A stretch of 64,000 nt of DNA from a virus (lineage: Duplodnaviria; Caudoviricetes). Shown here piece by piece: positions 6,100-52,994 of the stretch. The stretch lies in IMG/VR virus record IMGVR_UViG_3300028920_000023; one strand, given 5' to 3'. The position numbers and the translations under genes were made by a program. Below the pieces are notes generated by a model. The model worked only from the letters and a program-made list of their open reading frames with translations, had not been told where the DNA came from and made no database searches. Positions within the stretch are counted from its first letter, which is position 1, and every line of letters starts with the position of its first letter.

Positions 6100-6387
6100 C
6101 TAGAATAAAACACCCTCATTATCGATACACATAACATCCCGATAATCAATAAAAGCATAATCTGCACGATGTGGATCCTTCCTATCCGGCTCAATAATAT
6201 GGACAGGACAATGAAACTCAAAATAAGGACCCTCCTTATTAACCAGGATCCTATCACCAACCTCCAAACCAGAGACACCGCAGCCAATACCGACCACGGT
6301 GCCTCTAGAAGCATCTCCCTCTGATTCAAGCCTAATCAAGATATACGAGCCATAAGGCTTAACGGGCAATTCATTCTTCATCTTCAT
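6100..6387 (-). CDS. groES: GroES/Cpn10-like protein lacking the mobile loop
   Basis: VKPYGSYILIR...GTVVGIGCG...LEVGDRILV...FIDYRDVM follows the GroES pattern (iKPL.DRVLV..G.VVAVG.G..VkVGD.Vl..i..eDIL). Confidence 0.65.
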   Translation of the reverse strand: MKMKNELPVKPYGSYILIRLESEGDASRGTVVGIGCGVSGLEVGDRILVNKEGPYFEFHCPVHIIEPDRKDPHRADYAFIDYRDVMCIDNEGVLF

Positions 6388-7423
6388 GGAGTTCAGCAGC
6401 AGCCAAACAACCCTTGCTCACAGCGTGCAGAGGATCCGCAGCATGGCGAATCTCACCAATAGGAATCTGCAAATCATCCTTCTTCCTACCAAATTCTTTC
6501 CTCAAAAGATCAATAAAACCCTTAGGCATAGAAGTACCACCAGCATTAATAACCGGAACCGGCTCCGGAAACCTCACCTTATCGCGATTCTCATTAAAAC
6601 CACGAACAATACCATTAACAACATTCTCAATCATAATCTCATACATAATCTTAATAGTCTGATCAACCTTATTATCATAATTCATCAAAGACAAATCAAT
6701 CTTCTGCTTAGCATGAGCAATCGTAGTCGGAGTCTCAGCATAATCACCATTCGGATTAGACGGATCATAGCCAAACCGAACAGCCGCATCAGAATCCACC
6801 CTATCACCCGCACCAACCAAACAAAACTCAAAAATCGGAACACCAGCAAAACCAGCATGCACAGTAATCGTACCAGCACCCCAACTAATCCCAATAGCAG
6901 GACCAATCTCATCTAAAACCAAACACCTAGCCTCATTAATATGAAAAGCACTAATCTTACCACCACCAACAAACTTCTCAACCAACAACTTCACAATCTT
7001 CTTATGAAAATCAACATTCAAACGCTCATCATTCAAAGCCTTAGCCGTAGTACAATAATACAAAACCGTATCATCCTTCACATCCTGCCCCAACGCATTC
7101 ATAATAATCGACTTAACAATAATAGCCATAATCTCCTGAGCATTCTCATCCGTCTTAGAAACACCACCCTCAGCCATCGGGCGCTGTAAAGTCTTATTAA
7201 ACATATAAGCCAACTTCTCAGCCTTAGAGCCAATAGCAATCAACTGATCGCCATAAGGAACATAAGGAACACCCTGTTTCTTAAGAAGATTCTCAGTAAA
7301 TTTATCACCCCTACGCAAATCAATATAACCATTCACCTCATGAATGCTCTTAACCTCACCATCTTCCGTTTTCCAGGACAACACAATGTGCTTAGTACCT
7401 AAATCAAGTCCTAATCTATCCAT
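6371..7423 (-). CDS. actin-fold ATPase (MreB/FtsA/ParM-like)
   Basis: Phosphate-1 GLDLGTKH, connect-1 INEARC, phosphate-2-like GISWGAGT, adenosine NAGGTS, connect-2 PLHAVSKG. The ORF track extends to 7684, but that part overlaps another ORF; the Met at 7423 is the more likely start. Confidence 0.82.
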   Translation of the reverse strand: MDRLGLDLGTKHIVLSWKTEDGEVKSIHEVNGYIDLRRGDKFTENLLKKQGVPYVPYGDQLIAIGSKAEKLAYMFNKTLQRPMAEGGVSKTDENAQEIMAIIVKSIIMNALGQDVKDDTVLYYCTTAKALNDERLNVDFHKKIVKLLVEKFVGGGKISAFHINEARCLVLDEIGPAIGISWGAGTITVHAGFAGVPIFEFCLVGAGDRVDSDAAVRFGYDPSNPNGDYAETPTTIAHAKQKIDLSLMNYDNKVDQTIKIMYEIMIENVVNGIVRGFNENRDKVRFPEPVPVINAGGTSMPKGFIDLLRKEFGRKKDDLQIPIGEIRHAADPLHAVSKGCLAAAELHEDEE

Positions 7424-7448
7424 GATTGGTCTCCCGCTTTTCTTAATG

Positions 7449-7730
7449 TTATTTATTGGTTTGGTCTTGCCCGAGATTAACTTCGGGCGTTTTGAAATTT
7501 TCGAACTTATCTTCGAAGTCCTGTAATCTTTCCTCATCCGTAACGGCTGGAGGAGATTTAATAAATCCTTCTTGGTTATCGTGTGATCCGGATCTATGTT
7601 CGGTGATATCGGCTTTTTCGGAGTTCTTCCCGGAACCATGTGTGAATACGTGAATTTCCGGGACATTAATATTGACCTCCACAACGACTTTAGGAGGCCC
7701 CAACAGCCATCTGAGGAATCTACCTAACAT
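7449..7730 (-). CDS. hypothetical protein (93 aa)
   Basis: ORF track; fills the gap between neighbours and overlaps the upstream gene by a few bases. Confidence 0.55.
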   Translation of the reverse strand: MLGRFLRWLLGPPKVVVEVNINVPEIHVFTHGSGKNSEKADITEHRSGSHDNQEGFIKSPPAVTDEERLQDFEDKFENFKTPEVNLGQDQTNK

Positions 7731-9651: not shown

Positions 9652-9663
9652 ATAAATCTCCTC

Positions 9664-10236
9664 TCACGATATTTTTGATATACCATAATTCCAAGCAGCC
9701 TGCCAATTACAATATGGAGAAAATCTCTCAAACATAAACTCAGCATCCTCAGCTGTATCCCTATCATACCAAATATCATGCCAAATACAATCGAACTTTC
9801 TAGACGGAACCCACGTAAAAGCATCTCCATGAAAAATCTCAACATTCGGAAAATAAGGACCAACAAGATCAATAACCTCCTGATGCTTCTCCAACACACT
9901 AATCCTATCAGCCTTACCAGAATCAATCAACATCCCAATGTGCAGACCCAAACCAAGACCAGTAAACAAAACATCACCATAAGCATTCTCCAATAAGACC
10001 TCACAAGATAATTGCTCAATCTCAATATCTGTCATCATAACCCTGCCATCGTAAGTAAGCAAAGTAGACCCAGTCTCTTCACTCTTGTACACCTCAAAAG
10101 CACCAACCTTATTGGGTCTAATCTCAATCATGACAAAAATACCGTGAGGAATATCCATGATAAAGAAAAAACAACTAGGATCATTATCAATACGTACCAG
10201 CGGATCAGGAATAACAGACGCAGCCCAACTAACCAC
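9664..10236 (-). CDS. class I SAM-dependent methyltransferase (spermidine-synthase-like fold)
   Basis: DVLFTGLGLG (motif I), SVLEKHQEVI, FHGDAF, FDCIWHDIW. The true start may be the ATG at 10131. Confidence 0.8.
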   Translation of the reverse strand: MVSWAASVIPDPLVRIDNDPSCFFFIMDIPHGIFVMIEIRPNKVGAFEVYKSEETGSTLLTYDGRVMMTDIEIEQLSCEVLLENAYGDVLFTGLGLGLHIGMLIDSGKADRISVLEKHQEVIDLVGPYFPNVEIFHGDAFTWVPSRKFDCIWHDIWYDRDTAEDAEFMFERFSPYCNWQAAWNYGISKIS

Positions 10237-19370: not shown

Positions 19371-20248
19371 AGATTAGGACCAATAGGACCGGATTTAAGA
19401 TGCTTTTCCCAGAAACGAGCGTTACCAGTTATGTTCTGCCAAATCTCGTTTTTAAAAACAGTGTCATCAAAACAATTTTGCCATGATGAGGGTTGTGGTT
19501 TTACCTTGGGTCTTATCTTGTGTAAGTTCTTAAAACCATGCACATCATCGTCTTCATGTGTTATTTGTTCTACATTATCAAAATCATGGTCATAAGGTTC
19601 TTCTCCTAGAAATTCGTAAATGCATTCCATCGTGTTTTCTGGACTATTTGTCAATTTTTCATAATCAACAAAATACATATGATTAAGCCAGCCACGAAGA
19701 ATAGAATCATTAATAGCATTAAATGCCCTTCCGATAGGCTCACCATCGGAAATGAAAACTCTAATTCTATTTAATGCTATTCTCATCTTAAGAGGATCAT
19801 CATCCTGCGGAATACGACCCAAAGCTGAGGTCATTCTGAATAATTTCTCAAAGGAGGTAATAACGTCCCTAAGGTCTCTAACCGTGACCAGACATTTAAA
19901 ATCACCTATTAGGGCTTGAGCTAATTCAAAGAATGAGGGCCAGCCTCTGTTCTTGTCGAAACAGACTGGTTTATCGGTGTGTTGGAAAGATGCCTGTAGA
20001 ACGGCATTTAGGACGTTTTCTTTGACTTTTTCACAAAGGTCGTTGTCCCATGCTTTGAACATGGGGTTGGTATTCCAGGTGTTTTTCATCTGGACAAGTA
20101 AGTCTAACGTACCCGAGGATGGTGTTACGTAGAACTTTGGATTTTGTCCCAGGATATTCATAAGCAGGGTTGACCCACTACGGGGCAACCCTGATACTAG
20201 GTGTATTGTTTTCATGTTATTATGTACTTGCGATATAGTCCAAACCAA
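19367..20248 (-). CDS. PAPS-dependent sulfotransferase
   Basis: 5'-PSB loop [41 protein letters not shown]. The true start may be MKTIH. Confidence 0.88.
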
Positions 20249-21863
20249 TTCTGTTAGTGGGCAAGAAACTCGGGTCTAAATTAATTCCGGCTATATTACT
20301 GTTCCAGTACAATTTATCGTTCTCCTGAATATCCCCAATAGCTCTTACTGATGGCGAGAACTGATTAAAAGACATTGCCACGGACGTTGGACTTGATCTG
20401 TTTTGTATTGTATTATCACCTAATCGACCAGGATATCCGTAGGCATTATTAGTATTAGAATTATTTCCCCAATTCCAGACAGAACCATCTTCCTTAACCA
20501 AACAGGAAGCAGTGCAATCTGTATTGAAGAAAGAATGATTGCCAACCACACTAACAGGACTTGTTCTAACCAATATAGTATTATCCCCTACGCTATCATA
20601 AACGCCGTATACGGGATGCGCAACATCATATTTATTCTCACCCCAAGCCCAAACCTCACCATTGGCCTTCAACCCAGATATCGTGTTAGTTAAACTACTC
20701 ATTACCCTAATAAACGAATGATTACCAGCTACACTAACGGGGCTAGATTCTTTCGCATACCCATTACCAAGACCTGCCTGACCAGCAAGACCACCAGCCC
20801 AAGTCCATGCGCTCCCATCAGCCTTAAGACCAATCATTGCTCTACCACCAGCGATCTGAACAAAAGCATGATCACCATGCACACTGGTAGGGCTAGACCT
20901 ATTAATAGGAGTTTCATCACCAACTATATAATATCCATTATCCTGTCTGCCCCACCCCCAAGCAGAACCATCGGCCTTCAAAGCAAGAAAACCATCTATA
21001 AAACCATGCGTGACCTGAATAAACGAATGATTACCTATAACACTAGTAGGACTAGATTTATTTGTAATTGTACCATCACATACTACACCATAATAATTAA
21101 AGCCCCAAGCCCAAACAGTACCATCAGCCTTCAAACCAATATTAGTCTGATAACCAGCAACCACAGATATAAAAGAATGATTACCAACAACACTTACAGG
21201 ACTAGATTTATTATCAGGAGTATTATCGCCCAATTGACCACTATCATTAGTACCCCAACTCCAAGCAGTACCATCAGCCTTCAACGCAACAGTATGATAT
21301 TTACCCATACCACCAAAAGATACAAAAGAATGGTTACCAACAACACTCACAGGACTAGAAACATTATCAGCAGCATTATTACCCAACTGCCCCACATTAT
21401 TAAGGCCACTCATCCAAATACCACCAGTATAACCATCTAATACAGTCAAATTATTAGCAGACAAAGCAACCTTAGAATTGGTAAAATAATTAAAAGAATC
21501 AGGACTAAAGAAACAATCTTTAGTCTTAACACCATCACCAAGAGTCCTCTGAATACCATTCAAAGTAACATTCACATAATCAGCCGGAGTAGAACCAATC
21601 TGCACACCAGTATTCTGCTGATCACCAGAAATAAAAGACGTAACCTTAGTAGTCTCACTAACCAACCCACCACGACCAATCGGACCAGTAGGACCAGTAG
21701 GACCAGTCGGACCAGTAGGACCAGCAGAACCAGCAGGACCAGTCGGACCAGCCACAGCAGGACCAGTAGGGCCAGTAGGGCCGGTAGGGCCAGTCGGGCC
21801 AGTAGGACCAATTACACCTTGTGGTCCAAGAAAAACACCATCAGTAATCGATGAACCAGCCAT
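20220..21863 (-). CDS. collagen-like / RCC1-repeat beta-propeller protein (paralog 1)
   Basis: N-terminal GPT repeats; seven RCC1-like repeats ([16 protein letters not shown]...[12 protein letters not shown]). Confidence 0.88.
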
Positions 21864-21871
21864 GAGTCACC

Positions 21872-23446
21872 TCAGACAAAGTAATTGAAATCAACCCTAT
21901 CAGTCGTAGACAAGCCAACACCGGAAATATTACTATTATAATACAAATAATCATTAGCGCTTATATCAGCATGGGCTCTAGGCGGTGCAGTAAAAGGGAA
22001 ACTCTGCACAGCAGACGCCGGAGTAGATCTATCATTAACATCATTAGTGCCAAGTCTACCATTCGAATTATTGCCCCAACCCCATGGAATACCATCACTA
22101 TCTAAACCACCCATCATAGCAATATCAACAAAGGTATGAAAACCGGATACCAAAACAGGGCTGGTCCTAGTTAATGTAGTACCATCACCAGCAGAATCAT
22201 CATTATAGGGCTTACCCCAAGCCCAAAGCTGACCACCAAACTTCAAACCAGTCATAATACCACGAGGACCACTAGCTATCTTAATAAACGAATGTCCACC
22301 AACCACACTAGTGGGGCTACTTCTAGGATTCGAGGTACCATCACCAACAGTATCATTCAAACCACCCCAAGCCCAAACAGAACCATCAGACTTCAAACCA
22401 GCCGAAATAACACCGCCAGCAATTTGTGTAAAGACATGATCACCAACCACACTAGTGGGACTACTGCGAGGGTTCGTAGTACCATCACCCAAAAACGGAC
22501 GTGTAGCATCCTGAAAACCCCAAGCCCACACAGTGCCACCGGATTTCAGGCCAGCAAATCCGGGGAAATCACTATAACCAAGGCCAACAATCTCTGAAAA
22601 AGCATGGTTCCCAACAACCTGCCCTGGAGCATCTCCTGGACCGCCACCATTAAAATAAGTATTATTACCTAATTGCCCATACTTATTATTACCCCAAGAA
22701 TAAGTATAACTTCCTTCTAATGCAACAATAGAATCACCAGCAGCAGCTACTCGATCAAAAGTGTGATCTCCACTTACGCTGGTAGGGCTCGACCTAGGAA
22801 AGGAAGGATCAAATCCCCACCACCACGCAGCCCCTAAAGTATCTATAGCCACAGTATGCCTATAACCAACTGCAATATGAGAAAATTGAAAATCACCAAT
22901 CACACTAACGGGACTAAGTGACCCAATAAAATCAGTATAATCATTACCCAATTGACCATAATTATTCTTGCCAGTAGTCCAGACATAACCATAATTATTA
23001 CCACCGGTCAGGAAAGCGCTATGATACTGGCCAAAGACAGCCTTACTCCAATAATAATTATTGCCAGAAGCAGGAGCAACAGAACTAAAGAAACAATCCG
23101 CATCTGCAGAAGCATCACCAACCTCTTGCCGGACACCATTCAAAAAGACAGAAACAGCCTTGTGCGGATTATTTGAGATCTGTAAATTATTATTACTGTG
23201 AATATTAGGATAAGTAGTATTGGCACCAGGAGACAGATCCTTGTCATCCTTCGTAAACAAATAACCAGAGCCCGTAGGACCAGTCAAACCAGGGCCAGTA
23301 GGCCCTGTCGTTTGAGGACCAGTTGGGCCAGTCGGGCCGGTAGCGCCTACGGGGCCAGTAGGACCAGTAGGACCACCCAAACCAGGACCAGTCGGACCAG
23401 TCGGGCCAGCAAAACTATCACTATTTAATGAAGAGCCCATGGTCAA
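21872..23446 (-). CDS. collagen-like / RCC1-repeat protein (paralog 2)
   Basis: Same architecture; [12 protein letters not shown] and RSSPTSVVG repeats. Confidence 0.88.
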
Positions 23447-25077
23447 TCCTCAACGTAGTTTAAATCAACACGATCAGAAGGAGAAAGATCAAAACCCGCG
23501 ATGTTGCTATTCCAATACAGATAATCATCTTTGCTAATATTATAAACAGACCTAGGTACAACAACAAAAGGATAGGAAGAATTCACAACTGTTATCGGAC
23601 TATTAATACCCTCGTTAATATAACCATTTCCAATATTGCCATACTTATTATCACCCCATGCCCAAATCTGTCCATCATCCTTGACACCAACAGTAGAAGT
23701 TGGAACATTGGTGAAGCTATGATCACCAATTACACTAGTTGGACTACTTCTAGAATTGGAAGTATTATCACCTACGGAACCATAAGCCCACGAATAAATA
23801 AATTGCCCACCCCACGACCATAACGATCCGTCAGCTTTCTTTCCACCAACAGTCTTGTTCCCACCGCCAAATACACTGACAAAACTATGTTCTCCGGCAA
23901 CGGAAGTGGGACTAGAACGGCTATTTGTAGTATTATCACCTACACCAACACCGTAAGTGCCACTCCCACCCCAGCCCCAAACCGTTCCATCAGCCTTTAA
24001 GCCTAGAGAAATAAGAGTAGAGGCAATATCTATAAAACTATGATTTCCGATCACACTAACAGGGCTAGACCTATGATATTGAAAATCACTATAACCTTCA
24101 CCCAAATTACCATAATAATTAGCACCCCAACACCACGCAGTACCATCGGCTTTCAAAGCAACAAAATGATTAACACCATACTCAGCCCCACCAACAACCT
24201 TAATAAAACTATGGTTACCAATTACACTAGTAGGACTGCTCCTGGAATAAATAAAACCATTATACCCATCACCAATAATACCAGACTCATTAATACCCCA
24301 ACACCAAACTGTCCCATCAGACCTCAGACCAGCCGCATTTCGATTTGTCCGAGTAACCTGAACAAAATTATGACCACCAACAACAGAAGTAGGACTAGAA
24401 CGATTACTAGTATCACCAACACCTAACTGACCATACGAATTAGAACCCCAAGCCCAAGCAGAACCATCAATCTTAATAGCCACCACACTACCATTATAAA
24501 TACTACCACTAACAAACCTATGACCACCAACAACACTAGTAGGACTAGTCCTATTGGTAGCATAACCATCACCAATAGCACCAGAATTACCTCGACCCAT
24601 AACCCAAGCCGTGCCACCAACACCATTACTACTACCACCAGCAATAATCAACGTATTATATAAAGGCTTAAAAACCAAAGTCTCATATCTATAACCACTA
24701 AAATTATCAGAAGAAAAGAAAACATCCTTAGTCCTAACACCATCACCCACAACACGCTGAAAACCATTAATCAACGTACTAACATAACCACGAGGAGATC
24801 CACTAACCTGCAACCCCGTATTCTGAGCATAACCACTAATAGTAGAAGAAACAGACAAATCCTTATCAATACTTACAAAACCACTACCAGGACCAGTAGG
24901 ACCAGTAACTTCTGCACCCGTAGGACCAGTAGGACCAACAGCCGCCGTAGGACCCAAAGGACCAGTAACACCAGAACCAGTCGGGCCAGTAGGACCAGCA
25001 ACAACCTCATCCGAAGGACCAGTAGGGCCAACCGGGCCAGGAGAACCAACAATATCAATAAAAATAGAAGAACCCAT
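23443..25077 (-). CDS. collagen-like / RCC1-repeat protein (paralog 3)
   Basis: Same architecture. Confidence 0.88.
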
Positions 25078-25078
25078 A

Positions 25079-26632
25079 TTAGTCCTTAACGTAATCTAGA
25101 TCAACACGATCAGAAGGAGAAAGATCAAAACCAGCAATATTACTATTCCAATACAAATAATCATTAACCGCTATATTGTCAATAAACTTAGGGGTAGGTT
25201 GAAAAGCAGATGGAGTTAGAATAACGCTAGTTGGGCTAGATCTACCTGATGTATCTCCTAACCCCAATTGCCCAGTACCATTAGAACCCCAAATCCAAGC
25301 AGTACCATCAGACTTTAAACCAACATCCTCAGTCAGAACATTAGCAAAAGAATGATTACCAAATACACTGACAGGACTGGACTTTTCCCCAATCGAATTA
25401 TCTCCGGCATTGCCAGCATAAACTCTACCCCAAGACCACATGGTACCATCGGACTTAAGACCTCTAGACATCCCATGTCTACTATTTATAATCCTAATAA
25501 AACTATGATTACCGAGAACACTAGTCGGACTAGAACGGCTCACTAGATTAACGGCAAAAGCACCCCAAGCCCAAACCGTTCCATCACTTTTTAACCCATT
25601 ACTAGTAGTACCACCAGCGATCTGTATAAAACTATGATTCCCAACAACACTGACAGGACTTCTTTTATCAATAACAGTACCATCACCAAGCTGCCCACTA
25701 CCATTTTGACCCCAAGCCCAGACAGTACCATCAGGCTTCAGAGCCATTACACCTTCATCACAAGCCGTAATCTGCGAAAAATAATGATCACCGATAACAG
25801 AAGTAGGACTAGAGCGAGAAGTAAGAGTCCCATCACCAACATCAGTACCCCAACACCATAAAGTCCCATCAGCCCTTAAAGCAGCCATAACCTGTCTAGA
25901 ACCGACAACATCGACAAAATTATGACCACCAACAACACTAGTGGGACTAGAACGACTAACATTATAATTATCACCAATAGTCCCAGGACCGAAAAAAGAC
26001 CCGCCCCAACACCAAACACTACCATCAGCCTTAATAGCGGCCATAGTATAACGACCACCAGCAGTAATCTTTCTAAACTTATGATTACCAGCAACCGCTA
26101 CAAAAAGAGACCTGTTAGACCTATTAGTAGCCTCACCATTAGCACCCCAATAACCATAACCACAACAATAAGCCTTACCTGCATTAGCACCAGAACCACC
26201 AACAATTAAACCAGAATTTTCAAAACCAATACTAATACTCATATCATATCTATAACCACTGAAATTATCAGAAGAAAAGAAAGTATTCTCAGATCTAACA
26301 CCATCACCAACAACCTGCTGAAAACCATTAATCAACGTACTAACATAACCACGAGGAGACTCACTAACCTGCAACCCCGTATTCTGAGCATAACCGCTAG
26401 TAGCAGAAGGAGACAAACCCTTATCAACACCAACAAAACCACTACCAGGACCAGTAGGACCAGCCACCTGTGCACCCGTAGGACCAGTCGGACCAACAGC
26501 AGCCGTAGGACCCAAAGGACCAGTAACACCAGAACCAGTCGAACCAGCAGGCCCAGTAATACCAGGACCAGTCGGACCAGTCGGACCGGTACTACCAACA
26601 ATATAAATCGAAGTCAAAGACGAACCAGGCAT
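25079..26632 (-). CDS. collagen-like / RCC1-repeat protein (paralog 4)
   Basis: Same architecture; the N- and C-terminal flanks are nearly identical to those of paralog 3. Confidence 0.88.
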   Translation of the reverse strand: MPGSSLTSIYIVGSTGPTGPTGPGITGPAGSTGSGVTGPLGPTAAVGPTGPTGAQVAGPTGPGSGFVGVDKGLSPSATSGYAQNTGLQVSESPRGYVSTLINGFQQVVGDGVRSENTFFSSDNFSGYRYDMSISIGFENSGLIVGGSGANAGKAYCCGYGYWGANGEATNRSNRSLFVAVAGNHKFRKITAGGRYTMAAIKADGSVWCWGGSFFGPGTIGDNYNVSRSSPTSVVGGHNFVDVVGSRQVMAALRADGTLWCWGTDVGDGTLTSRSSPTSVIGDHYFSQITACDEGVMALKPDGTVWAWGQNGSGQLGDGTVIDKRSPVSVVGNHSFIQIAGGTTSNGLKSDGTVWAWGAFAVNLVSRSSPTSVLGNHSFIRIINSRHGMSRGLKSDGTMWSWGRVYAGNAGDNSIGEKSSPVSVFGNHSFANVLTEDVGLKSDGTAWIWGSNGTGQLGLGDTSGRSSPTSVILTPSAFQPTPKFIDNIAVNDYLYWNSNIAGFDLSPSDRVDLDYVKD

Positions 26633-35722: not shown

Positions 35723-35772
35723 TATCAAAGTTGTTGCTCTTTTCAGAAGTAAATAAAAGAAAGGAGCAACTT

Positions 35773-37140
35773 ATGCCATCTGGAAAAAAGATTAATTGGT
35801 CTGCATATGATGATTTAATACGTATAGAATTACCAAAAACCACAATCGCGTCATTCCGCAATAAATTCTTAAAACATATCTCAGCAAAGGCTATAGGGGC
35901 CAGAGCCAGAAAATTAGGTATAAAACCAGCTAAAAAGTCAAAGCTGGACGAAAGACATAAGAAGACAATATCAGAAAGCTTGATGAAAGAAACACCAGAA
36001 TTAATAAACAAAATAAAAGAATTACGAGACAGGAATTCAACAAAGGAAATCGCCAAGATACTGGGATGTAGCATATCTCTGGTAAACCGAATAATCAAAA
36101 GACAGAACATTAAATTAAGTAAGGAAGGAAAAATAAGAGTCAGAACACAAATTAGTAGTAAACAAAAAGGCAAGATTCCATGGAATAAAGGCATGGAAAT
36201 GCCCCTAGAGTTCAGAATAAAGGTGGCCATATCAAGACAAAAACAATCTGGAAGACTCTCCAAAATACAACAATCTTTTTACAGAACACTAGATGAATTA
36301 GGGGTTAATTATTTAGAAGAAACTAATGAGAAATGTAGATTTGGGCCGTGGACTTTCGATTGCAGAATAATAGAACCGGGGTATGATATTCTGGTCGAGG
36401 TCCAGGGTGGGTATATCCATTCCTTACCGAAGAACATTCATAAGGATGAAGCTAAAGCGACCTATATGAGGAGATATTTCCCAGACATACCGATAAAATA
36501 CATTTGGGAACATGAGTTTGGCGCGGCCAATAGGATCAAGATGAAGGTCCTTCAATGGATAGGCAGGAGAAATATAGAGCAAGTTGATTTTAATTTCAGG
36601 GATGTTACAATTTCCTATATTGAGACTAGTGAAGCGCGAGAATTTGTATCTGCTTTTCATTATTTGGAGAAAATGGTCGGAAAGACATGCATTGGGGCGA
36701 AATTAGGGGACAAAATTATTGCGGTGTCAGTATGGGGGGCACCTACGAGATATGAGACTGCATCTAGATTAAATGTCAAATTAAACAGATGTTTGGAGTT
36801 ACGTAGGTTTGTGGTTCATGATGCATATCATAAGAAGAATTTTGCATCATGGTTTTTGGCTAGGTCAATACCATTGTTACAAGGTCCAGAAGTATTGGTT
36901 AGCTTTGCAGATGTTGGCTTTGGCCATCATGGTACGATTTATAAAGCGAACAATTGGGAGTATGATGGAATGACGGAACCATCATATTTTTATATTGACC
37001 AGGATGGGTATGTGATATTAAAGAAGACATTATATAATCAGGCACGTAAGATGCATATGACTGAATCGGATTTTGCTGAGACATATAATTACAGGAAGGT
37101 ACCAACACCAGGAAAGAAACGGTTCATAAAGAGGTTATAA
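35773..37140 (+). CDS. fusion: DNA-binding region, PD-(D/E)XK/Vsr-like endonuclease and Mom-like GNAT-fold DNA-modification domain
   Basis: IPWNKG (NUMOD3-like); FDCRI...LVEVQGGYIH...KDEAK...IWEHE (Vsr/DUF559-like); EAREFVSAFHYL...LELRRF...SWFLARS...LVSFAD...GHHGTIYKANNW (Mom-like). AAGGAG RBS before 35773. Confidence 0.75.
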   Translation: MPSGKKINWSAYDDLIRIELPKTTIASFRNKFLKHISAKAIGARARKLGIKPAKKSKLDERHKKTISESLMKETPELINKIKELRDRNSTKEIAKILGCSISLVNRIIKRQNIKLSKEGKIRVRTQISSKQKGKIPWNKGMEMPLEFRIKVAISRQKQSGRLSKIQQSFYRTLDELGVNYLEETNEKCRFGPWTFDCRIIEPGYDILVEVQGGYIHSLPKNIHKDEAKATYMRRYFPDIPIKYIWEHEFGAANRIKMKVLQWIGRRNIEQVDFNFRDVTISYIETSEAREFVSAFHYLEKMVGKTCIGAKLGDKIIAVSVWGAPTRYETASRLNVKLNRCLELRRFVVHDAYHKKNFASWFLARSIPLLQGPEVLVSFADVGFGHHGTIYKANNWEYDGMTEPSYFYIDQDGYVILKKTLYNQARKMHMTESDFAETYNYRKVPTPGKKRFIKRL

Positions 37141-37843: not shown

Positions 37844-37997
37844 GTGGTGGTTCTTTGACAATCTAGTCCTGTGGGTTTTCAGGCTACACGGTCGCCTAGA
37901 GATTATCCAGAAGTGATAATCGAAGATGAACCATGGGGTTCCGCCCAGCACGCATCACCCACAGGAATGCTTATCCCGCGTGTGTACGGGCGCGTGG
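37844..37997 (+). repeat. 154-bp block (structured leader plus first repeat), copy 1
   Basis: Identical to 38464-38617 (offset 620 bp). Confidence 0.92.
37867..37966 (+). ncRNA. candidate tracrRNA/omegaRNA-like scaffold, copy 1
   Basis: A 10-bp closing stem TCCTGTGGGT/ACCCACAGGA encloses hairpins AGGC/GCCT, GATTATC/GATAATC and GAACC/GGTTC, plus a possible anti-repeat CGCCCAGCACGC. Confidence 0.65.
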
Positions 37998-38407
37998 CCA
38001 GGGGAATTGGCCGTCCGCACTAGTTTAGAACCTATCCCGCGTGTGTACGGGCGCGTGGTCGGACAATCATCGGCCTGATATATGTTCCGCGTGCGTACGG
38101 GCGCGTGGCGTGAGCGCAACCGTCCAGAACCACAGTGTTTGGTCCGCGTGCGTTGGGCGCGTGGAAAGTCCCGAATGATGCCCACCCGTTCCTCCGGTTT
38201 GGTCCGCGTGCGTATGGGCGCGTGGGAAAATATGCATCAGAAAGGCGTTTCTCGTCAGTTTGGTCCGCGTGCGTACGGGCGCGTGGCAGAGCCAAACAAC
38301 GGGACACAGAAGAATGCCATCTGATCTGCGTGTGTACGGGCGCGTGGACAGGACAAAAAAGAGCCACGGAAGACAGCAGTTTGGTCCGCGTGCATACGGG
38401 CGTGTGG
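37969..38407 (+). CRISPR. CRISPR-like array A: 8 repeats, 7 spacers (32, 21, 28, 32, 32, 32, 31 nt)
   Basis: Consensus repeat GTTTGGTCCGCGTG(T/C)GTACGGGCGCGTGG (29 nt), with a conserved 3' 22-nt hairpin core and unique spacers. Confidence 0.9.
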
Positions 38408-38463
38408 TATGGTGGATTTATCGAGTCACTTTCATCTTTTGGATTGTCTGGTATTCCGTAGTC

Positions 38464-38617
38464 GTGGTGGTTCTTTGACAATCTAGTCCTGTGGGTTTTC
38501 AGGCTACACGGTCGCCTAGAGATTATCCAGAAGTGATAATCGAAGATGAACCATGGGGTTCCGCCCAGCACGCATCACCCACAGGAATGCTTATCCCGCG
38601 TGTGTACGGGCGCGTGG
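38464..38617 (+). repeat. 154-bp block (structured leader plus first repeat), copy 2
   Basis: Identical to 37844-37997. Confidence 0.92.
38487..38586 (+). ncRNA. candidate tracrRNA/omegaRNA-like scaffold, copy 2
   Basis: Same stems as copy 1. Confidence 0.65.
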
Positions 38618-39318
38618 GACAAAGACGAAAAGTGAATAGGTATTCTCACACCTATCCCGCGTGTGTACGGGCGCGTGGCTTGGCTCCTGTTACTGAGAGC
38701 CAAACTAAGACTCGGGCCTCACCGTTTGGTCCGCGTGTGTACGGGCGCGTGGAACCCTGGACCCGTACAGTACTTCAGCGCGTTGTTTGGTCCGCGTGTG
38801 TACGGGCGCGTGGGAATGCTGAGAGACAGAGGAAATGGCACTGGAGTTTGGTCCGCGTGTGTACGGGCGCGTGGAGGTCTTGCTGATCTGTAATGGGAAG
38901 CCATCTGTTTGGTCCGCGTGTGTACGGGCGCGTGGGAGATCCCGGTCGCGGGTGGTCCGGCAGGGTAATGTTTGGTCCGCGTGTATACGGGCGCGTGGGG
39001 TCGATGGTTGTCCTGCTTCGTTTTAGCTCAGTTTGGTCCGCGTGTATACGGGCGCGTGGCTGGCAGACCTCATCTGGTCTTCCTGCAAAGCGTTTGGTCC
39101 GCGTGCGTACGGGCGCGTGGTGAGGCCAGGGGTATTATCCAAGCATTCCAAAGGGTCCGCGTGCGTACGGGCGCGTGGGTAGACGAGGCCGCTAAGGATC
39201 TGCCCCGCGTGGAGGCCGCGATCGAACGTAATGACCCAGGCAACTGTCCAGCGTGTGTACGGGCGCGTGGCTCCTTCAAGAACCCATTGGTCTGTCCCGC
39301 GTGCGTACGGGCGCGTGG
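38589..39318 (+). CRISPR. CRISPR-like array B: 12 full repeats plus 1 collapsed repeat; spacers mostly 32 nt (range about 19-45)
   Basis: Same repeat; period about 61 bp; degenerates toward the 3' end. Confidence 0.92.
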
Positions 39319-39337
39319 TATGGTGGATTTATCGATC

Positions 39338-39418
39338 GCGGGGACATGGCATGGCCGCTGGGACCGGGAAAGCGCGCCCGGCTCTCGAAGTGAGGTTCGA
39401 TTCCTCCGCCCTGCACCA
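39338..39418 (+). tRNA. tRNA-like element with a non-canonical anticodon arm
   Basis: Acceptor-like stem GCGGGGA/GCCCTGC plus A-CCA end; T-loop GAGG-TTCGATT-CCTC. The central hairpin CCGGG/CCCGG has an 8-nt loop that does not fit the anticodon consensus. Confidence 0.4.
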
Positions 39419-39513
39419 ATTTAGAGCGACTTCACCCACCAAAAATCTCGGACGTTGATGCACAAGTTTCACATATAACACACAACGATACAAAATATCA
39501 AAGGAGAACAACC

Positions 39514-41211
39514 ATGGCCAAGAAGAAAGACACACACGCACACACAGAACATTACTACGTCAGCATCAAAGACCCCACAAAGGAACAGACATATAACAAC
39601 AAAGGAGAACCAGAAAAAGACACAGAACTATACGAGCAAGTAATGACAGATATTCGGATGTACCGCAAAACAACACAAAAACTAGGCGCATTCTATCTAG
39701 TGCACCTCTTCGCCACAGCCCAAACAGACCTAGATAACCTCGCAGAACAAATCGACAAAAATGAAGCACTCGACGTAATGCGAGAATCACTAAGATCCAA
39801 CGTCAAACGACTACTAGGCAAACAAGACAGACTCGACGAAGCCCTCCAAGAAGCAGAAGTAGCATTCACAGAAGCCTGTATCGACCTAGAAACAGCAGGA
39901 GAAGTAAAACCAACACAAAAACAGAAACTAGAAGCAGCTGTACGCAAAGCCGAGAAACAATACGAACAAATCAGAAAGAAACACCCAACAACCGCCATAC
40001 AAGACGCAGAAGAACAAGTCCAAAAAGCCAAAGCAACCTACGCCAAAACCAAAACCAAAGACGACCTCGAAGCGCTCAGGAACGCAGAAACACGCCTCAG
40101 AGGAATCAAGAAAAGAACCGAAGAAGAAGCACGCAGAATCGAAGCACTACGCCAAAATGGCAAGATATTGACAGTCAAAGAAACAGAAAGAGCCTACATC
40201 CACGGCTACCTGATGCCAGAATGGAAGCCGTTCATAGCCGAATCCATCACAAGCACAACACGCGGCATCCTACACAGAATCATGGGCTCCAAAGACCCAG
40301 AAATAACAAACCTGCCCAGAGAATACCTAGCAGCCAACGGCGTAAGAGGCACCCCAGAATTCAAAGAAATCGGAATAGAAATCAAGAACACCGAATATAG
40401 ACCCACAGAAGACGGATTTGGAATATTAACAGAAATACGCAAAGGACAACCAATAGAACTAAGATTCTATAGAAAGAGAAGAAAAGGCAAGAAAATGAAA
40501 ATGGACCCACACAAATTCTTTATACTCAAGAAACTAGGATTCATACCAAACCAAAACGGAGAAAGAAAAGCCGACTGGAAACCAGGAACATGTTTCCTCA
40601 CAACAGACCGTCAAGGAAAACGCCTAGCAATAAGACTAACCTACACCAGACCAAACAAACAAAGAAACCTAAACCCAGACCGCACAATGCGAGTAGACTT
40701 CCACGAAGACCTATATAACAAAGACAAATACATGTGCATGCACATGGAAAGCGGCTTCCTACCAACAGACAACGTCAGCTACCTCGCATCACTAGACCAA
40801 GTCAAAAACACAACATGGTCCTCCAAAACCATGTACGAAGACATGCGAGGACTAAACCAACAGAAACTCGAAATAGAACAATTATGGAGAAACAAAAGCA
40901 CTAACAGGCACGTAAGAGAAAGATTATCCAAAAGGAAACAGAACCTACAAAAGAGACAAACCGGAACCCAAAGACGATGGCGAGGAACAATAAACCAAAC
41001 CATCCGCAAACAAGCAGAAAGATGGAACTGTGGCAAAATCATAATGGGGCACCTACCAGACAAATTCTATGGCTTCCCATGGCCACAAAGTAACTTCAAG
41101 CTAGCCCTAACATCCAAACTCAAAGAATACGGAATACAAATCACCTGGATAGACGATGTCAAGGTAGGAAAAACCAAAACAAAACGCAAAAAAGAACCCG
41201 TCTGTCTCTAA
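39514..41211 (+). CDS. TnpB/Cas12-like (type V-like) RNA-guided effector, predicted nuclease-dead (565 aa)
   Basis: WED-like segments (PEFKEIGIEIKN; GTCFLTTDRQGKRLAIRLTY); RuvC-I-like LNPDRTMRVDF; bridge-helix-like segment; RuvC-II-like QAERWNCGKIIMGHL; WPQSNFKLALTSKLKEYGIQITWI; adjacent to the arrays; AAGGAG RBS. Confidence 0.75.
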   Translation: MAKKKDTHAHTEHYYVSIKDPTKEQTYNNKGEPEKDTELYEQVMTDIRMYRKTTQKLGAFYLVHLFATAQTDLDNLAEQIDKNEALDVMRESLRSNVKRLLGKQDRLDEALQEAEVAFTEACIDLETAGEVKPTQKQKLEAAVRKAEKQYEQIRKKHPTTAIQDAEEQVQKAKATYAKTKTKDDLEALRNAETRLRGIKKRTEEEARRIEALRQNGKILTVKETERAYIHGYLMPEWKPFIAESITSTTRGILHRIMGSKDPEITNLPREYLAANGVRGTPEFKEIGIEIKNTEYRPTEDGFGILTEIRKGQPIELRFYRKRRKGKKMKMDPHKFFILKKLGFIPNQNGERKADWKPGTCFLTTDRQGKRLAIRLTYTRPNKQRNLNPDRTMRVDFHEDLYNKDKYMCMHMESGFLPTDNVSYLASLDQVKNTTWSSKTMYEDMRGLNQQKLEIEQLWRNKSTNRHVRERLSKRKQNLQKRQTGTQRRWRGTINQTIRKQAERWNCGKIIMGHLPDKFYGFPWPQSNFKLALTSKLKEYGIQITWIDDVKVGKTKTKRKKEPVCL

Positions 41212-41237
41212 AGCTAACAACATCCACAGGAGGAAAC

Positions 41238-42032
41238 ATGGCCACCAAACTAACGCTAACACTGAACGACATCAAAACCAAACCAATCGAAAAACTCGCA
41301 GCCAAAGCTGCCGATAGAAAAGAAATAGACACCAACGAATGTGCCACTATCAAAGAAGTATTCGTACAGATCGCCGACCAACACAACGACGATCTAGAGA
41401 AAATATCCGTATTCCTACCACTGCTATCCAGAACACAAATGAAAGAATTATTCGAAGTATTGAAAAGAAACACCAATATAACCTCAAACTTCCTAAGAGC
41501 ACTACAATGTTACGGTCAAAACTTCACGCCAGTGGACTACGAATATAGAATGGCAGGGCACCTTGTATTCGGAATCAAAAACGGATTCGACGTAAACAAA
41601 TGGAAGACACTAGACACCCAAACAAGAGCAAGACTGAACAACCCAAACGAAATAGTGACCGTACTAAACAACAAACACACACCCGAACAAATACAAATAA
41701 AAGACCTAGACGGATGGAGGATGGACCTCCTAGTATCAAAAACAGGCATCCGAGGCATAGAATGCCAAAAGAAATACCTCTGCACCAAAAACGTAAAAAA
41801 GAAACTACCGAAAGCAACAAACGGGAACATCAAGACCCTAGCCAGATCAGACCCAGAAGATCACAGCTTGCTAGAAGCTGTGGCGGACAAGAAACGCCAC
41901 GAAGTGCATACAAATAGCTGGGTCATCATGTCCGCAAGCGGACACGCCATACTAGTAACAGAACAAGAAATGAAAACAATGTTAAACGAGAATTACTCAG
42001 TAGTCCTAAGGCCCAGACCAAAATCAGCCTAA
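41238..42032 (+). CDS. hypothetical protein (264 aa), probably co-transcribed with the effector
   Basis: 26 bp after the effector stop, with an AGGAGG RBS; no recognisable motif. Confidence 0.8.
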   Translation: MATKLTLTLNDIKTKPIEKLAAKAADRKEIDTNECATIKEVFVQIADQHNDDLEKISVFLPLLSRTQMKELFEVLKRNTNITSNFLRALQCYGQNFTPVDYEYRMAGHLVFGIKNGFDVNKWKTLDTQTRARLNNPNEIVTVLNNKHTPEQIQIKDLDGWRMDLLVSKTGIRGIECQKKYLCTKNVKKKLPKATNGNIKTLARSDPEDHSLLEAVADKKRHEVHTNSWVIMSASGHAILVTEQEMKTMLNENYSVVLRPRPKSA

Positions 42033-43356: not shown

Positions 43357-45009
43357 TCAGGTCTCAACAGACTCCCTAAACCACTCGGGAAACAAATAAC
43401 TATCCTGATAAAACAACCTAAAAAACTGCGAATCTAAAACATAAGTATCCGAACGATCATTCTCATGACGCACAGTCCGACCACAAGACTGCAATAACTT
43501 AGTAACAGTCCTCCAAGAATAATAACCAGGAGACAACTCCATCCTAGCAGCAATCTGCGGATCATTCTTAGGCGGGTAAGGAATCTTACAAATAATCTGA
43601 AACCTACCCAAATCATCCTTCAAATCCAAACCCTCATGCATCGCAGGAGCAATAATCACACTATCGCGAGTATTCTTATGCTTCTCCAAAAGAACCCGCT
43701 TATCACCAGAAAATTCCGGAGAATTCTGATAAAGGAACCTACACCTAACATCCTTATCACACTCCTTTAACAACATCCTACAAATCTCAAAATTATGAGT
43801 ATGAATAATACCCCTCTTCCCCTCATAAGACTTACAAATCATATTCACACAATCAATCAACTTAGGAAAAACCTTCTCCTTATTATTATAAGTAATAGGA
43901 CCACAATCACTAACATACACCGGGCGATTCTTAGCAGGAAACGTACTAGAGACCCTAATCAGCTTAGCCTCATCCCTAGGAATAGCCAAAGCATCGCAAA
44001 TAATATTCTTAGACAAAATAGTAGCACTCATAAACAAAAATTTATCAGCATAAACATACAAATACTTGTTCACAAAATCATCAACAAAAATAGGCTTAAA
44101 AGTAACCGACCTAAACAAACCATCAGCTTTAACCTTAAACTCACAAACCCACTTACTTGGATCAGACTTCATAAACATAGAAAACTTATGCTGCAACCTT
44201 TTCCACAAATCAACAGCATCTAAGTCCTCAGTCAATTTAGCAATGTGCAAATTAGACTCAATACGCTCCAATAAATTAATATCCGTGAAAAACTCAATAT
44301 ACTCAGCCGGCGAATCTAACTCCGGAAATTCTATGCCCCTGAAATCTTTATCATTAAGAGAAATCTCAATAAACTGAAGAAGAACATCCTCAGTACCATG
44401 GGCCTCATCAATAATCATCAATTCACGTGGACCAAACTGCTTAGAAAAAGCAGACTGATACAAAAAAGAATGAAAATTCATAAGACAAATATTACTAGCC
44501 TTAGCCTTCCACAACTGCAAATAATAAGCACAAGTAAACTTCCCAAGCTCCGTACAATATTTCAACTTAGACTCATCCTTCCTCTTACACTCACCCTTAT
44601 CACAACGCACATCCTGGCGAGATAAATCCCGATACCTAGACAAATCCCCAGGATCAACAGAAAAAGTCGGATCATTCAAAACCTGCTCATAATATTCACA
44701 CGGATAAGCATTTCTTCCCTTCAATTCCACCATCGGGTAAGAAGACAAATGCTTACCGCCCTCACCAAAATCCGCACTTAACTGATCTTGGAGGAACTTC
44801 TGAGGTGCTAAATAAAAGGAATTCTTAGCAAGCTGCGCTATAGTATATCCTATAGCGCTTTTACCAGCTCCGGTCGGTGCCTCGATAAATACAAACCGGC
44901 AACCTTGTTTAAAAAATTCGAGCGCCTTCCTAATTACCTCGAATTGTCCAGAACGATAAGAAGACATCGGAAAGATTTCATCAACAACTTCATCATTAAC
45001 ATCAAGCAT
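43357..45009 (-). CDS. dinG: DinG/XPD-family SF2 helicase
   Basis: IEAPTGAGKS, Cys cluster, IIDEAH, FMSAT, EGLDL, QSCGRTVRHEND. Confidence 0.88.
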   Translation of the reverse strand: MLDVNDEVVDEIFPMSSYRSGQFEVIRKALEFFKQGCRFVFIEAPTGAGKSAIGYTIAQLAKNSFYLAPQKFLQDQLSADFGEGGKHLSSYPMVELKGRNAYPCEYYEQVLNDPTFSVDPGDLSRYRDLSRQDVRCDKGECKRKDESKLKYCTELGKFTCAYYLQLWKAKASNICLMNFHSFLYQSAFSKQFGPRELMIIDEAHGTEDVLLQFIEISLNDKDFRGIEFPELDSPAEYIEFFTDINLLERIESNLHIAKLTEDLDAVDLWKRLQHKFSMFMKSDPSKWVCEFKVKADGLFRSVTFKPIFVDDFVNKYLYVYADKFLFMSATILSKNIICDALAIPRDEAKLIRVSSTFPAKNRPVYVSDCGPITYNNKEKVFPKLIDCVNMICKSYEGKRGIIHTHNFEICRMLLKECDKDVRCRFLYQNSPEFSGDKRVLLEKHKNTRDSVIIAPAMHEGLDLKDDLGRFQIICKIPYPPKNDPQIAARMELSPGYYSWRTVTKLLQSCGRTVRHENDRSDTYVLDSQFFRLFYQDSYLFPEWFRESVET

Positions 45010-48930: not shown

Positions 48931-49434
48931 GTGATGGAAACATATGCTTTTCCCCTACGAACAGGGGACATCCGGATACAACCGAACCCCGTGCTGTTGT
49001 CTCTCCTGAAAGAAGAAAAACAAGAAACAGAAGAAGACCCGATCACAGAAGAAGACCCGATCACAGAAGAAGACCCGATCACAGAAGAAGACCCGATCAC
49101 AGAAGAAGACCCGATCACAGAAGAAGACCCGATCACAGAAGAAGGACCCCTGGAGAACATAGGAGAAGGCACGGGATGTATACGCTTCCTATGTAACAAA
49201 GAAATATCAATGAAGATAACAGGAAACGGCCTCGACGGAGATGACAGAATAGTCTGGGACAAACGCCTCCTGGAGACCGTCAGAGAAGCCAGAGAGAAAT
49301 TCTACGAATTATTGAAACTAGGGTACGCAGCATTCTCCGTCAAGAAAAACGGCAGAAAATCAAACCGCAGGATGCACAAATTCGACCCGCGAGTAGAAGA
49401 AATCATCATGGTCGCCCCACAGGCAGCAGGATAA
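48931..49434 (+). CDS. hypothetical protein with an (EEDPIT)6 repeat
   Basis: ORF track; the repeat is in frame. Confidence 0.7.
   Translation: MMETYAFPLRTGDIRIQPNPVLLSLLKEEKQETEEDPITEEDPITEEDPITEEDPITEEDPITEEDPITEEGPLENIGEGTGCIRFLCNKEISMKITGNGLDGDDRIVWDKRLLETVREAREKFYELLKLGYAAFSVKKNGRKSNRRMHKFDPRVEEIIMVAPQAAG
49027..49134 (+). repeat. tandem repeat, 6 x 18 bp (ACAGAAGAAGACCCGATC)
   Basis: Six perfect copies followed by a partial copy. Confidence 0.95.
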
Positions 49435-51921: not shown

Positions 51922-52197
51922 TTAATCAAAATCAACTAAAGAAACATTCTTTCCAGCAAGCTTATGTCCACAATCAGATAAAAAACGTAAAACACCATCC
52001 GTAAGAAACAAATGACATCTAATCCTCCCAAAATTCAAAAGAGAAGGCGTAAACGTCGGCTTATCCAAATTACCATTAAAAATCCAAGAAGGATAATTCG
52101 GAACACCAACGTAAAATACATGACTAATCTCACACCCAGGGCAATAAAACATATACCCCTTGCCACCACTAAAATCACACTCAATCAACGTCTTCAT
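51922..52197 (-). CDS. DUF6527-like small Zn-binding protein
   Basis: FYCPGC...H...WIFNGNLDKPTFTPSLL...RCHLFLTDG..FLSDCGH. Confidence 0.7.
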   Translation of the reverse strand: MKTLIECDFSGGKGYMFYCPGCEISHVFYVGVPNYPSWIFNGNLDKPTFTPSLLNFGRIRCHLFLTDGVLRFLSDCGHKLAGKNVSLVDFD

Positions 52198-52994
52198 GCT
52201 AGAAACGGCTTATCTACCCTAGTACCCTCAGCCTGGGGAACCTGCCAATAACCACTAGAAGACAAATCCTTCTGAGTCTTCTTAACAAGATCCTTAAGAG
52301 ACGTCCTCAACCTCATCTTACGCATATTTCGAATAAGAAAATGTGTAAGAGCACCACAAGGACGACCACCAACCTCAGTATCAGCACTAGTCTGCTCAGC
52401 CCTACAGCCAGAAATAAACCCAACATCCAAATCGCCACCACGAATCAAATCCCTAAACTTAGCAGTCAAACTCAAAAGAGATAAAGAACGCTTCCTCCAC
52501 TCCAAATCCGGCGGAGTAGGATACATTCTAGGAACCTGGATAACATCAGACAAATCCCTAGTCAACGTACCACTATGACAACAATCAGCCACCCAATAAA
52601 ACCTAGTGCCCTTCTTAACCTTATTTTTAAAATGATTATAAAGCCAATCATCAGTAATCATATGCTTGGCAGACCAATCAAAATCAACAGGACAAATAAC
52701 CTCATCCAAACCATCAATTTCCTCATTATACTTATCCCGAGAAGTAACCTGGACACCATGCCCACTAAAATGAAAAAAGATCCTATCCTTAGGACCAGCA
52801 TCCGTCAGCCAATACAACCTCTGTTTAATCGCCTCCGTAGTAGCACGCCCATCACACAAGAGACGAATCTGATTATACTTAAAACGGTACCTCGAAACCA
52901 AAACCTCCCCCATATCCATAGCATCATTAACACAACCACGCAGAGGAGACTTCGGATAAGCATTAATTCCAACCACCAGAGCTTTGTCACCCAT
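52194..52994 (-). CDS. metacaspase (peptidase C14)
   Basis: ALVVGINAY..LRGCVNDA; His in HFSGHG; Cys in ADCCHSG. Confidence 0.92.
   Translation of the reverse strand: MGDKALVVGINAYPKSPLRGCVNDAMDMGEVLVSRYRFKYNQIRLLCDGRATTEAIKQRLYWLTDAGPKDRIFFHFSGHGVQVTSRDKYNEEIDGLDEVICPVDFDWSAKHMITDDWLYNHFKNKVKKGTRFYWVADCCHSGTLTRDLSDVIQVPRMYPTPPDLEWRKRSLSLLSLTAKFRDLIRGGDLDVGFISGCRAEQTSADTEVGGRPCGALTHFLIRNMRKMRLRTSLKDLVKKTQKDLSSSGYWQVPQAEGTRVDKPFLA

Follow-up and report, generated by a model that had tools for sequence, protein, structure and literature searches.

Why would a bacteriophage carry CRISPR (clustered regularly interspaced short palindromic repeat) arrays beside a Cas12-like protein that lacks most of the site needed to cut DNA? 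The question is raised by positions 37844-42032 of a 64,000-nucleotide (nt) stretch of viral DNA (Duplodnaviria; Caudoviricetes; IMG/VR record IMGVR_UViG_3300028920_000023), the whole of which is referred to here as the window. An earlier reading, made from the sequence alone, had picked out two arrays with a 29-nt repeat, a tRNA-like element and two open reading frames (ORFs) of 565 and 264 amino acids (aa), all on the + strand, and had proposed that the larger protein is a TnpB/Cas12-type effector without a working RuvC nuclease. The two arrays and two ORFs are indeed present, with 20 repeat copies in all, and comparison with solved structures identifies the 565-aa protein as Cas12f-like, with an incomplete catalytic site. 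Related proteins are linked to arrays of the same kind on other phages. With a probability of roughly 65%, we read the locus as a phage-borne, adaptation-free CRISPR module built around a natural nuclease-dead Cas12f, that is, an RNA-guided DNA binder that does not cut.

A Cas12f-like effector with an incomplete nuclease site

No significant match to the 565-aa protein was found in Pfam, PHROG or NCBIfam. A word-indexed search of 5.8 billion proteins matched only the protein itself, and tblastn against 50,697 deposited phage genomes returned nothing. Relatives emerged from an exhaustive HMMER search of 1.84 billion cluster representatives, which yielded 66 related clusters (defined at 50% identity) at E <=0.001. 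Most of these relatives are 360-500 aa long, align to query residues ~200-550 and share the same C-terminal end. A family profile, A1, built from an alignment of 46 relatives, matched Cas12f chains in the PDB at E values from 3e-23 to 1e-17, with OsCas12f at 3e-23, SpCas12f1 at 6e-20 and AsCas12f at about 2e-18. A natural nuclease-deactivated Cas12f (dCas12f, structure 9n9c) was matched at 1.5e-14 and a TnpB at 3e-11; the corresponding scores were 85 bits for nuclease-active Cas12f, 57 bits for 9n9c and 46 bits for TnpB.

Structure prediction pointed to the same family. The AlphaFold model made from the single sequence was unusable (predicted local distance difference test, pLDDT, 41), and the model made with the A1 alignment reached a pLDDT of 81.6 and a predicted template modelling score of 0.68. 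When the latter was searched against the PDB with Foldseek, the top 20 matches, with E values of 1e-11 to 1e-8, were without exception Cas12f or dCas12f; Cas12m, Cas12g and TnpB came next. Alignment with VIA-align placed 9n9c first (Z 18.0, root-mean-square deviation 4.6 Å, 328/346 residues, model residues 3-546), then SpCas12f1 (Z 15.7), AsCas12f (15.6) and OsCas12f (15.2), with TnpB (~11) and Cas12k (~10.9) lower. The WED-REC-RuvC architecture of the Cas12f/TnpB superfamily is thus recognisable by profile and by structure (VIA-align Z 15-18, model residues 3-555), and the fold check suggested along with the sequence-only reading returned a Cas12f-like protein over its whole length. The 9n9c protein is one of the dCas12f proteins of Bacteroidota described in 'Exapted CRISPR-Cas12f homologs drive RNA-guided transcription' (Nature 2026; PMC13472631), which are C-terminally truncated, nuclease-dead and bind DNA with guide RNAs (structures 9n9c, 9n9m).

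The RuvC site of the 565-aa protein retains one residue of the D-E-D triad. In HMMER alignments to solved Cas12f proteins, the query motif MRVDFH falls on the GVDMG strand of RuvC-I, with the Asp kept, and IIMGHL falls on IQMEDL of RuvC-II, where the Glu is replaced by Gly; both motifs had been read this way from the start. The early end that had been described was also found, for the protein stops only 22 residues past the YKA..GI strand and contains no CxxC pairs, no Zn ribbon/TNB domain and no RuvC-III. The family as a whole shows the same condition: its RuvC-I Asp column is unconserved (S, E, C, T or N), and its RuvC-II Glu column holds G, K, L or N. In 44 of the 46 aligned members the chain ends no more than 41 residues past the YKA..GI strand, which means that the Zn-ribbon/TNB domain and RuvC-III are missing from them. 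P0004 runs on for 78 residues, and a CxxC remnant is kept in P0004 and P0008. Conservation lies elsewhere, at R278, H491, W493, G507, P515, W523, Y534, K535 and G540, columns that are at least 90% conserved in the family and that argue for a selected, retained function other than that of a nuclease.

One part of the protein has no counterpart in its relatives. A helical Ala/Glu/Lys-rich insertion of ~130 aa occupies residues ~71-200 in the REC region, close to the span of about 70-215 first given for it, and is specific to the query. At the DNA level, the coding strand has a very strong excess of A over T (skew 0.5-0.73) across 39400-42000 (+), above most of the surrounding region; this skew of the genes for the 565-aa protein and its 264-aa neighbour (ORF264) hints at a different origin or codon use of the cassette.

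Scaffold-headed arrays and their predicted guides

Upstream of the effector gene, both arrays (Table 1) are built from one 29-nt consensus repeat, GTTTGGTCCGCGTGTGTACGGGCGCGTGG. The window contains 19 copies of the 22-nt core of this repeat, all on the + strand and all within 37976-39318, against a count of 0 in 100 shuffles of the window; the twentieth copy, in array 1, is 2 nt short. Together the arrays hold 18 spacers, where about 18-19 guides had been proposed. Most spacers are 31-34 nt long, giving a 61-nt period, and six are irregular (19, 21, 28, 29, 45 and 63 nt). The 3' 22 nt of the repeat are near-invariant and the 5' 7 nt variable, with most of the variation in the two opening and three closing units of the arrays. 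Because the well-conserved 3' 22 nt are the portion retained by a type V guide, this pattern counts for a guide-RNA reading. In RNA of the + strand, the repeat folds into an 8-bp hairpin whose end coincides with the 3' end of the repeat (-11.8 kcal/mol), and the complementary strand folds poorly (-4.6 kcal/mol). A hairpin present on the + strand only fits transcription of that strand and guides that keep the hairpin beside the spacer, as in type V. The last repeat of each array is followed by a 17-nt trailer that occurs nowhere else in the window. A search for a sigma-70 promoter serving the arrays found none.

Adaptation genes were sought in a domain scan of 55 non-overlapping window ORFs of at least 120 aa, with three spurious frames over the arrays left out and an E limit of 0.001 for most ORFs and 1 for those beside the locus. 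The scan returned no Cas1, Cas2, Cas4, Tn7 or sigma-factor domain and none of the tnsB, tnsC and tniQ Pfam families, so the lack of cas1/cas2 and Tn7 genes reported at the outset holds for the ORFs scanned.

Table 1. Positions of the features of the locus in the window
Feature	Position	Strand	Description
Scaffold copy 1	37844-37968	+	125 nt, structured, directly upstream of array 1
CRISPR array 1	37969-38407	+	8 repeats (one is the 2-nt-deleted copy 38137-38163), 7 spacers
Trailer copy 1	38408-38424	+	17 nt, TATGGTGGATTTATCGA
Scaffold copy 2	38464-38588	+	125 nt, identical to copy 1, directly upstream of array 2
CRISPR array 2	38589-39318	+	12 repeats, 11 spacers
Trailer copy 2	39319-39335	+	17 nt, identical to copy 1
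tRNA-like element	39338-39418	+	Acceptor-like stem, canonical T-loop, encoded CCA
Effector ORF	39514-41211	+	565 aa, Cas12f-like, C-terminally truncated, AGGAG-type ribosome-binding site
ORF264	41238-42032	+	264 aa, 26 nt past effector stop codon, GGAGG ribosome-binding site

The two arrays are headed by an exact duplicate of 154 nt (37844-37997 and 38464-38617), made up of the scaffold and the first repeat, and the description of the locus as duplicated scaffold-plus-array units was therefore apt. The scaffold is predicted to fold into a closing stem of 9-10 bp around three hairpins (minimum free energy, MFE, -52.5 kcal/mol; z -2.1), and comparable three-hairpin regions precede the first repeat in relatives. 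Pairing of scaffold to repeat was scored with RNAduplex against 500 dinucleotide shuffles. It was significant in the relatives L005 (p=0.01) and L007 (p=0.004) but not in L006 (p=0.22), and in the window it was no better than in shuffles (p=0.41), so that an anti-repeat placed in the window scaffold by a related note found no backing. On these results a role like that of a trans-activating CRISPR RNA (tracrRNA) is plausible for the scaffold across the family and unproven for the window locus.

Scaffold sequence was also met on other contigs. Part of it (38517-38569; 37879 onward) is shared, with one mismatch, by a 921-nt contig in run X2 and a 10.7-kb contig in run X3, and both run on into a repeat end and a spacer foreign to the window. 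Run X3 also has a contig in which the scaffold is preceded by another upstream flank. It follows that at least one further scaffold/array unit exists, either in the phage outside the window or in a relative.

The tRNA-like element that follows array 2 deserves its name only in part. Its MFE fold is cloverleaf-like, with the T-loop GGTTCGATTCC and an encoded CCA, but the likeness to a tRNA does not extend beyond the T-arm, acceptor and CCA, and shuffled sequences fold just as stably. As a candidate tRNA or transfer-messenger RNA it was rejected: ARAGORN calls none, and the best Rfam match, tRNA-Sec, reached 13.5 bits at E 4.4, against a gathering score of 47. That the element is a tRNA-derived processing or end signal is speculation.

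We infer the following course of events from this arrangement. A + strand transcript would run from scaffold to array to scaffold to array, and its repeat-spacer units would give rise to guides in which the 3' repeat hairpin is kept beside the spacer. The 125-nt scaffold would be the portion of the guide RNA that the effector recognises, acting in cis in the first unit of an array and perhaps in trans in the remaining ones. The effector may bind these guide RNAs, probably as a dimer like Cas12f, and once loaded with RNA it would bind complementary DNA without cleaving it. Bound in this way, the 565-aa protein could act as a roadblock or repressor on the DNA of the host or of competing mobile elements during infection.

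A number of observations weigh against such a programmable binder. Contigs L001, L002 and L004, all from other samples, carry array 2 unchanged, and L003, likewise from another sample, carries its 3' part unchanged; the arrays are identical wherever they are covered across four contigs from different samples, and several of their units are irregular or decayed. Taken together, identical arrays and decayed units give no sign of ongoing spacer uptake. A 29-nt repeat with a 32-nt spacer is unusual for type V-F, and to this may be added the failure of the window scaffold to pair with its repeat better than shuffles do. DNA of the locus is present in three metagenome runs, all of marine sediment and all apparently of DNA, with no RNA run among them. 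Finally, the spacer searches suggested as a check on the sequence-only reading produced no convincing target: the spacers match nothing in the rest of the window, and thus no self-target, and the first 22 nt of five spacers match nothing in IMG/VR. The other loci retrieved gave no match either, with the exception of L132 (Ga0213861_10000138, a 55-kb metagenome contig), where positions 1231-1252 match the first 22 nt of spacer 38999-39030, the last 10 nt being mismatched. The match lies on the coding strand of a pdxH-like (pyridoxamine-phosphate-oxidase-like) ORF, is expected by chance ~0.05-0.1 times on a rough estimate of the collection size, and is a lead only. Published dCas12f guides need just 14-16 nt (PMC13472631).

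A separate source of serial short matches in the spacer BLAST is a tandem repeat with an 18-nt period at 49027-49143 (+), inside the ORF at 48931-49434.

Several of the same observations feed a rival account, in which the locus is a decaying relic, a cassette acquired from a GC-richer source whose function has been lost. The G+C content of the arrays is ~60%, compared with ~40% for the region and the phage; some repeat units are irregular or collapsed, spacers do not turn over between samples, and the nuclease is dead. Yet the 565-aa ORF is intact, and the non-catalytic residues of the family are strongly conserved. The 154-nt scaffold duplicate is 100% identical, in contrast to the spacers, which differ; this points to constraint or homogenisation, and the same architecture recurs in distant relatives at 25-30% identity. 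We therefore regard a functionless relic as a distant prospect.

Relatives, known systems and a possible partner

The sequence-only reading had staked itself on homologs of the effector being linked to such arrays, and the relatives do carry the same kind of scaffold-plus-array units. A co-oriented array or, at the edge of the contig, an initial repeat is present in seven of the eight family loci with DNA, the window included. Loci that show two or more repeats all have a 61-nt period, and the repeats lie on the gene's strand in every array-bearing locus examined. The repeat sequences differ between loci, with the 29-nt length and a G-rich 3' end in common. In the locus of P0003 (L005, 27% identity), the gene is flanked on its two sides by a total of three ~135-nt scaffolds that are 93% alike, and a mini-array of 29-nt repeats with a 61-nt period comes after every one of them. 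The P0007 locus (L010) is on a 169-kb NCBI contig of a metagenome-assembled genome (MAG), close to a phage integrase, and its 7-repeat array lies 80 nt downstream of the gene; the IMG/VR viral contig L133 has an 11-repeat array ~120 nt downstream. The short contigs L006, L007/L008 and L009 each end in the structured region, L006 and L007/L008 reaching the first repeat at the contig end; such structured regions and repeats are where assemblers break. The P0070 locus (L011) has no array. It carries two hairpin-rich, scaffold-like copies of 71 nt (77% alike) at 9656-9876, 400 nt downstream, and these look like stand-alone guide-RNA scaffolds.

The gene neighbourhoods of the family loci are phage- or mobile-element-like, and one IMG/VR locus was retrieved with a sub-alignment of the family. 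The L133 cassette is flanked (1-260, 2500-4900) by several genes of 15-nt (pentapeptide) repeats. Members of the family thus show full arrays, scaffold-headed mini-arrays, or scaffold-like units without an array, a range of relevance to the published proposal that CRISPR arrays gave rise to single guide RNAs.

The geometry of the repeats raises another question, namely whether the arrays serve the neighbouring protein at all. They could be orphan arrays that feed a Cascade-type system of the host, with type I-E-like spacing (29/32/61), in which case the Cas12f-like protein would be unrelated or without a role. The 29/32 geometry is indeed found family-wide, adaptation genes are absent from the scanned window ORFs, and the L010 repeat presumably resembles I-E repeats, a lead rather than a test. 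Geometry, however, is the only point of agreement with type I-E-style arrays. The hairpin ends the window repeat and leaves no 8-nt handle, and the repeat matches no Rfam CRISPR-DR family. No array with the window repeat was found in other genomes: its exact core has no match in 185,579 species genomes or in viral or metagenome collections, and a relaxed pattern gave only single chance matches, in GC-rich genomes. In all loci examined the arrays lie next to the gene and point the same way, the repeat sequences vary between phages and travel with the protein, and structured scaffolds precede the arrays, with significant anti-repeats in two relatives. Of the accounts weighed here, a supply of guides to a host Cascade is the least probable.

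The closest known counterparts of the proposed binder are the natural dCas12f proteins. The sequence-only reading held that its combination of features matched no recognised subtype, but the combination is less unprecedented than that. Most published dCas12f proteins work with sigma-E to start transcription, and the same study describes a separate dCas12f cluster that lies beside CRISPR arrays, with putative guide RNAs upstream of the arrays; this cluster was presented without experiments, and the role suggested for it in a Chitinophagaceae MAG is repression of an efflux operon (PMC13472631). The window locus resembles that cluster in having a dead Cas12f beside arrays and a structured putative guide RNA upstream, a likeness of architecture only. 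With natural dCas12f in general its protein shares the Cas12f fold and the loss of part of the RuvC site through truncation at the C-terminus, and with 9n9c, its best structural match, a common end point after the YKA..G strand. Among the papers searched, none describes the phage-borne family, and array-linked dCas12f is mentioned only briefly (PMC13472631).

The locus is of the natural dCas12f kind, and it differs from the published members in four respects. It is found on a 354-kb phage and not on a Bacteroidota chromosome; its 18 spacers sit in two scaffold-headed arrays, in place of stand-alone single guides; unlike the sigma-E clade, it has no rpoE/sigma-E or helix-turn-helix (HTH) partner gene; and its protein reaches 565 aa owing to the helical insertion. 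The family is nearer to active Cas12f by sequence and nearest to 9n9c by structure. Since the A1 profile scores higher on active Cas12f than on 9n9c, a common origin of the truncation is not shown.

Other type V systems are less similar. The type V-F Cas12f proteins (AsCas12f, SpCas12f1, OsCas12f, Un1Cas12f1) are closest in sequence, have the same fold and an adjacent array, and the long structured RNA region of the window could fill the role of their tracrRNA. The window effector differs from them in lacking the catalytic Glu, the Zn ribbon (TNB) and RuvC-III, and the locus differs in having no cas1, cas2 or cas4, in its 29-nt repeats and in having a scaffold fused to the repeat that opens each array. 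TldRs (TnpB-like nuclease-dead repressors) are TnpB derivatives that work with a single omega-RNA-like guide and are not known to use CRISPR arrays. They too are small, RuvC-dead, C-terminally shortened proteins of the TnpB family, and some, encoded by phages, are reported to repress host genes by RNA-guided binding; the window locus is set apart by its arrays and by a family profile that favours Cas12f (85 bits) over TnpB (46 bits). Cas12k of the type V-K CRISPR-associated transposons, Cas12m and Cas12c also bind DNA without cutting it, and they match the model less well in structure (Z 9-11). Cas12k goes together with Tn7-like genes, of which the scanned window ORFs have none, and Cas12m and Cas12c keep an intact RuvC domain.

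How a dead effector might act on its target bears on the role of ORF264. Instead of blocking DNA directly, the effector could recruit a partner to the target, whether ORF264 or a transcription factor of phage or host, as dCas12f does with sigma-E. Published dCas12f acts through a partner (PMC13472631), ORF264 lies 26 nt past the effector gene with a ribosome-binding site of its own, and the ~130-aa query-specific insertion could serve as an interaction surface. In P0002, the closest relative of the effector, a 245-aa ORF occupies the same position and overlaps the effector stop codon, the sole hint of a link between ORF264 and the effector. On the other side, ORF264 has no Pfam, PHROG or NCBIfam domain (sigma and HTH included), no detectable homolog and no fold lead in Atlas; no neighbour gene is conserved across the other family loci, and no sigma factor was found among the scanned window ORFs. 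A complex prediction for the 565-aa protein and ORF264 gave no verdict, its score of 0.01 being evidence neither for nor against binding, and the idea of ORF264 as a partner, raised in a related note, gained no support. Recruitment is thus an unlikely, if intelligible, mode of action.

If the locus is the RNA-guided, non-cutting binder that we favour, it would amount to viral programmable interference with host or competitor genomes, without DNA breakage. Natural dead Cas12f proteins have only recently been shown to be RNA-guided transcription regulators in bacteria, and the family described here suggests that phages, including one of 354 kb, carry miniature DNA binders with multi-guide arrays. 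Predicted RNA-guided DNA binders of 360-440 aa are also of practical interest as compact programmable binders. A more ambitious version is tentative and, on balance, doubtful: a huge phage running multiplexed natural CRISPR interference, in which a dead mini-Cas12f with two scaffold-headed arrays, and possibly a third unit elsewhere in the genome, would silence a set of genes of the host or of rival phages in the course of infection, with a cis scaffold, a tRNA-like 3' element and an ORF264 partner as three new features. Were it true, the cis, scaffold-first guide fusion would be a new intermediate between CRISPR arrays and single guide RNAs, the tRNA-like 3' element a new processing or stabilising signal, and ORF264, a partner of unknown fold, would add a function.

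The carrier phage and its other genes

The longest contig that encodes the 565-aa protein is 354,787 bp long. Within the window, the genes include a PHP/DNA polymerase III alpha fragment, glycosyl- and sulfotransferases and an SbcCD-like pair. Upstream of the locus, a 469-aa fusion at 35731-37140 (+) combines an HTH region with a Mom-like domain (PF25680, E 1e-21) and accounts for the only weak HTH-type matches; Mom-domain proteins are also found near P0002. On the other side, a DinG/XPD-type helicase (Helicase_C_2, ResIII, DEAD_2) at 43357-45009 (-) is convergent to the cassette and lies 1.3 kb downstream of it. This helicase is not conserved beside the relatives of the effector.

Farther away, four tandem paralogues of ~520-545 aa with RCC1-like repeats, one of them with a collagen-repeat N-terminus, occupy 20220-26632 (-). 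Neighbouring genes encode tail-fibre chaperone (Peptidase_S74) domains, and the four paralogues probably form a set of receptor-binding proteins. Other genes specify a caspase-domain protein at 52194-52994 (-) (Peptidase_C14, E 6e-31), a Volactin-like protein (E 3.5e-41) at 6371-7684 (-), and a protein with a histone H1-like Hc1 domain at 3149-3601 (-).

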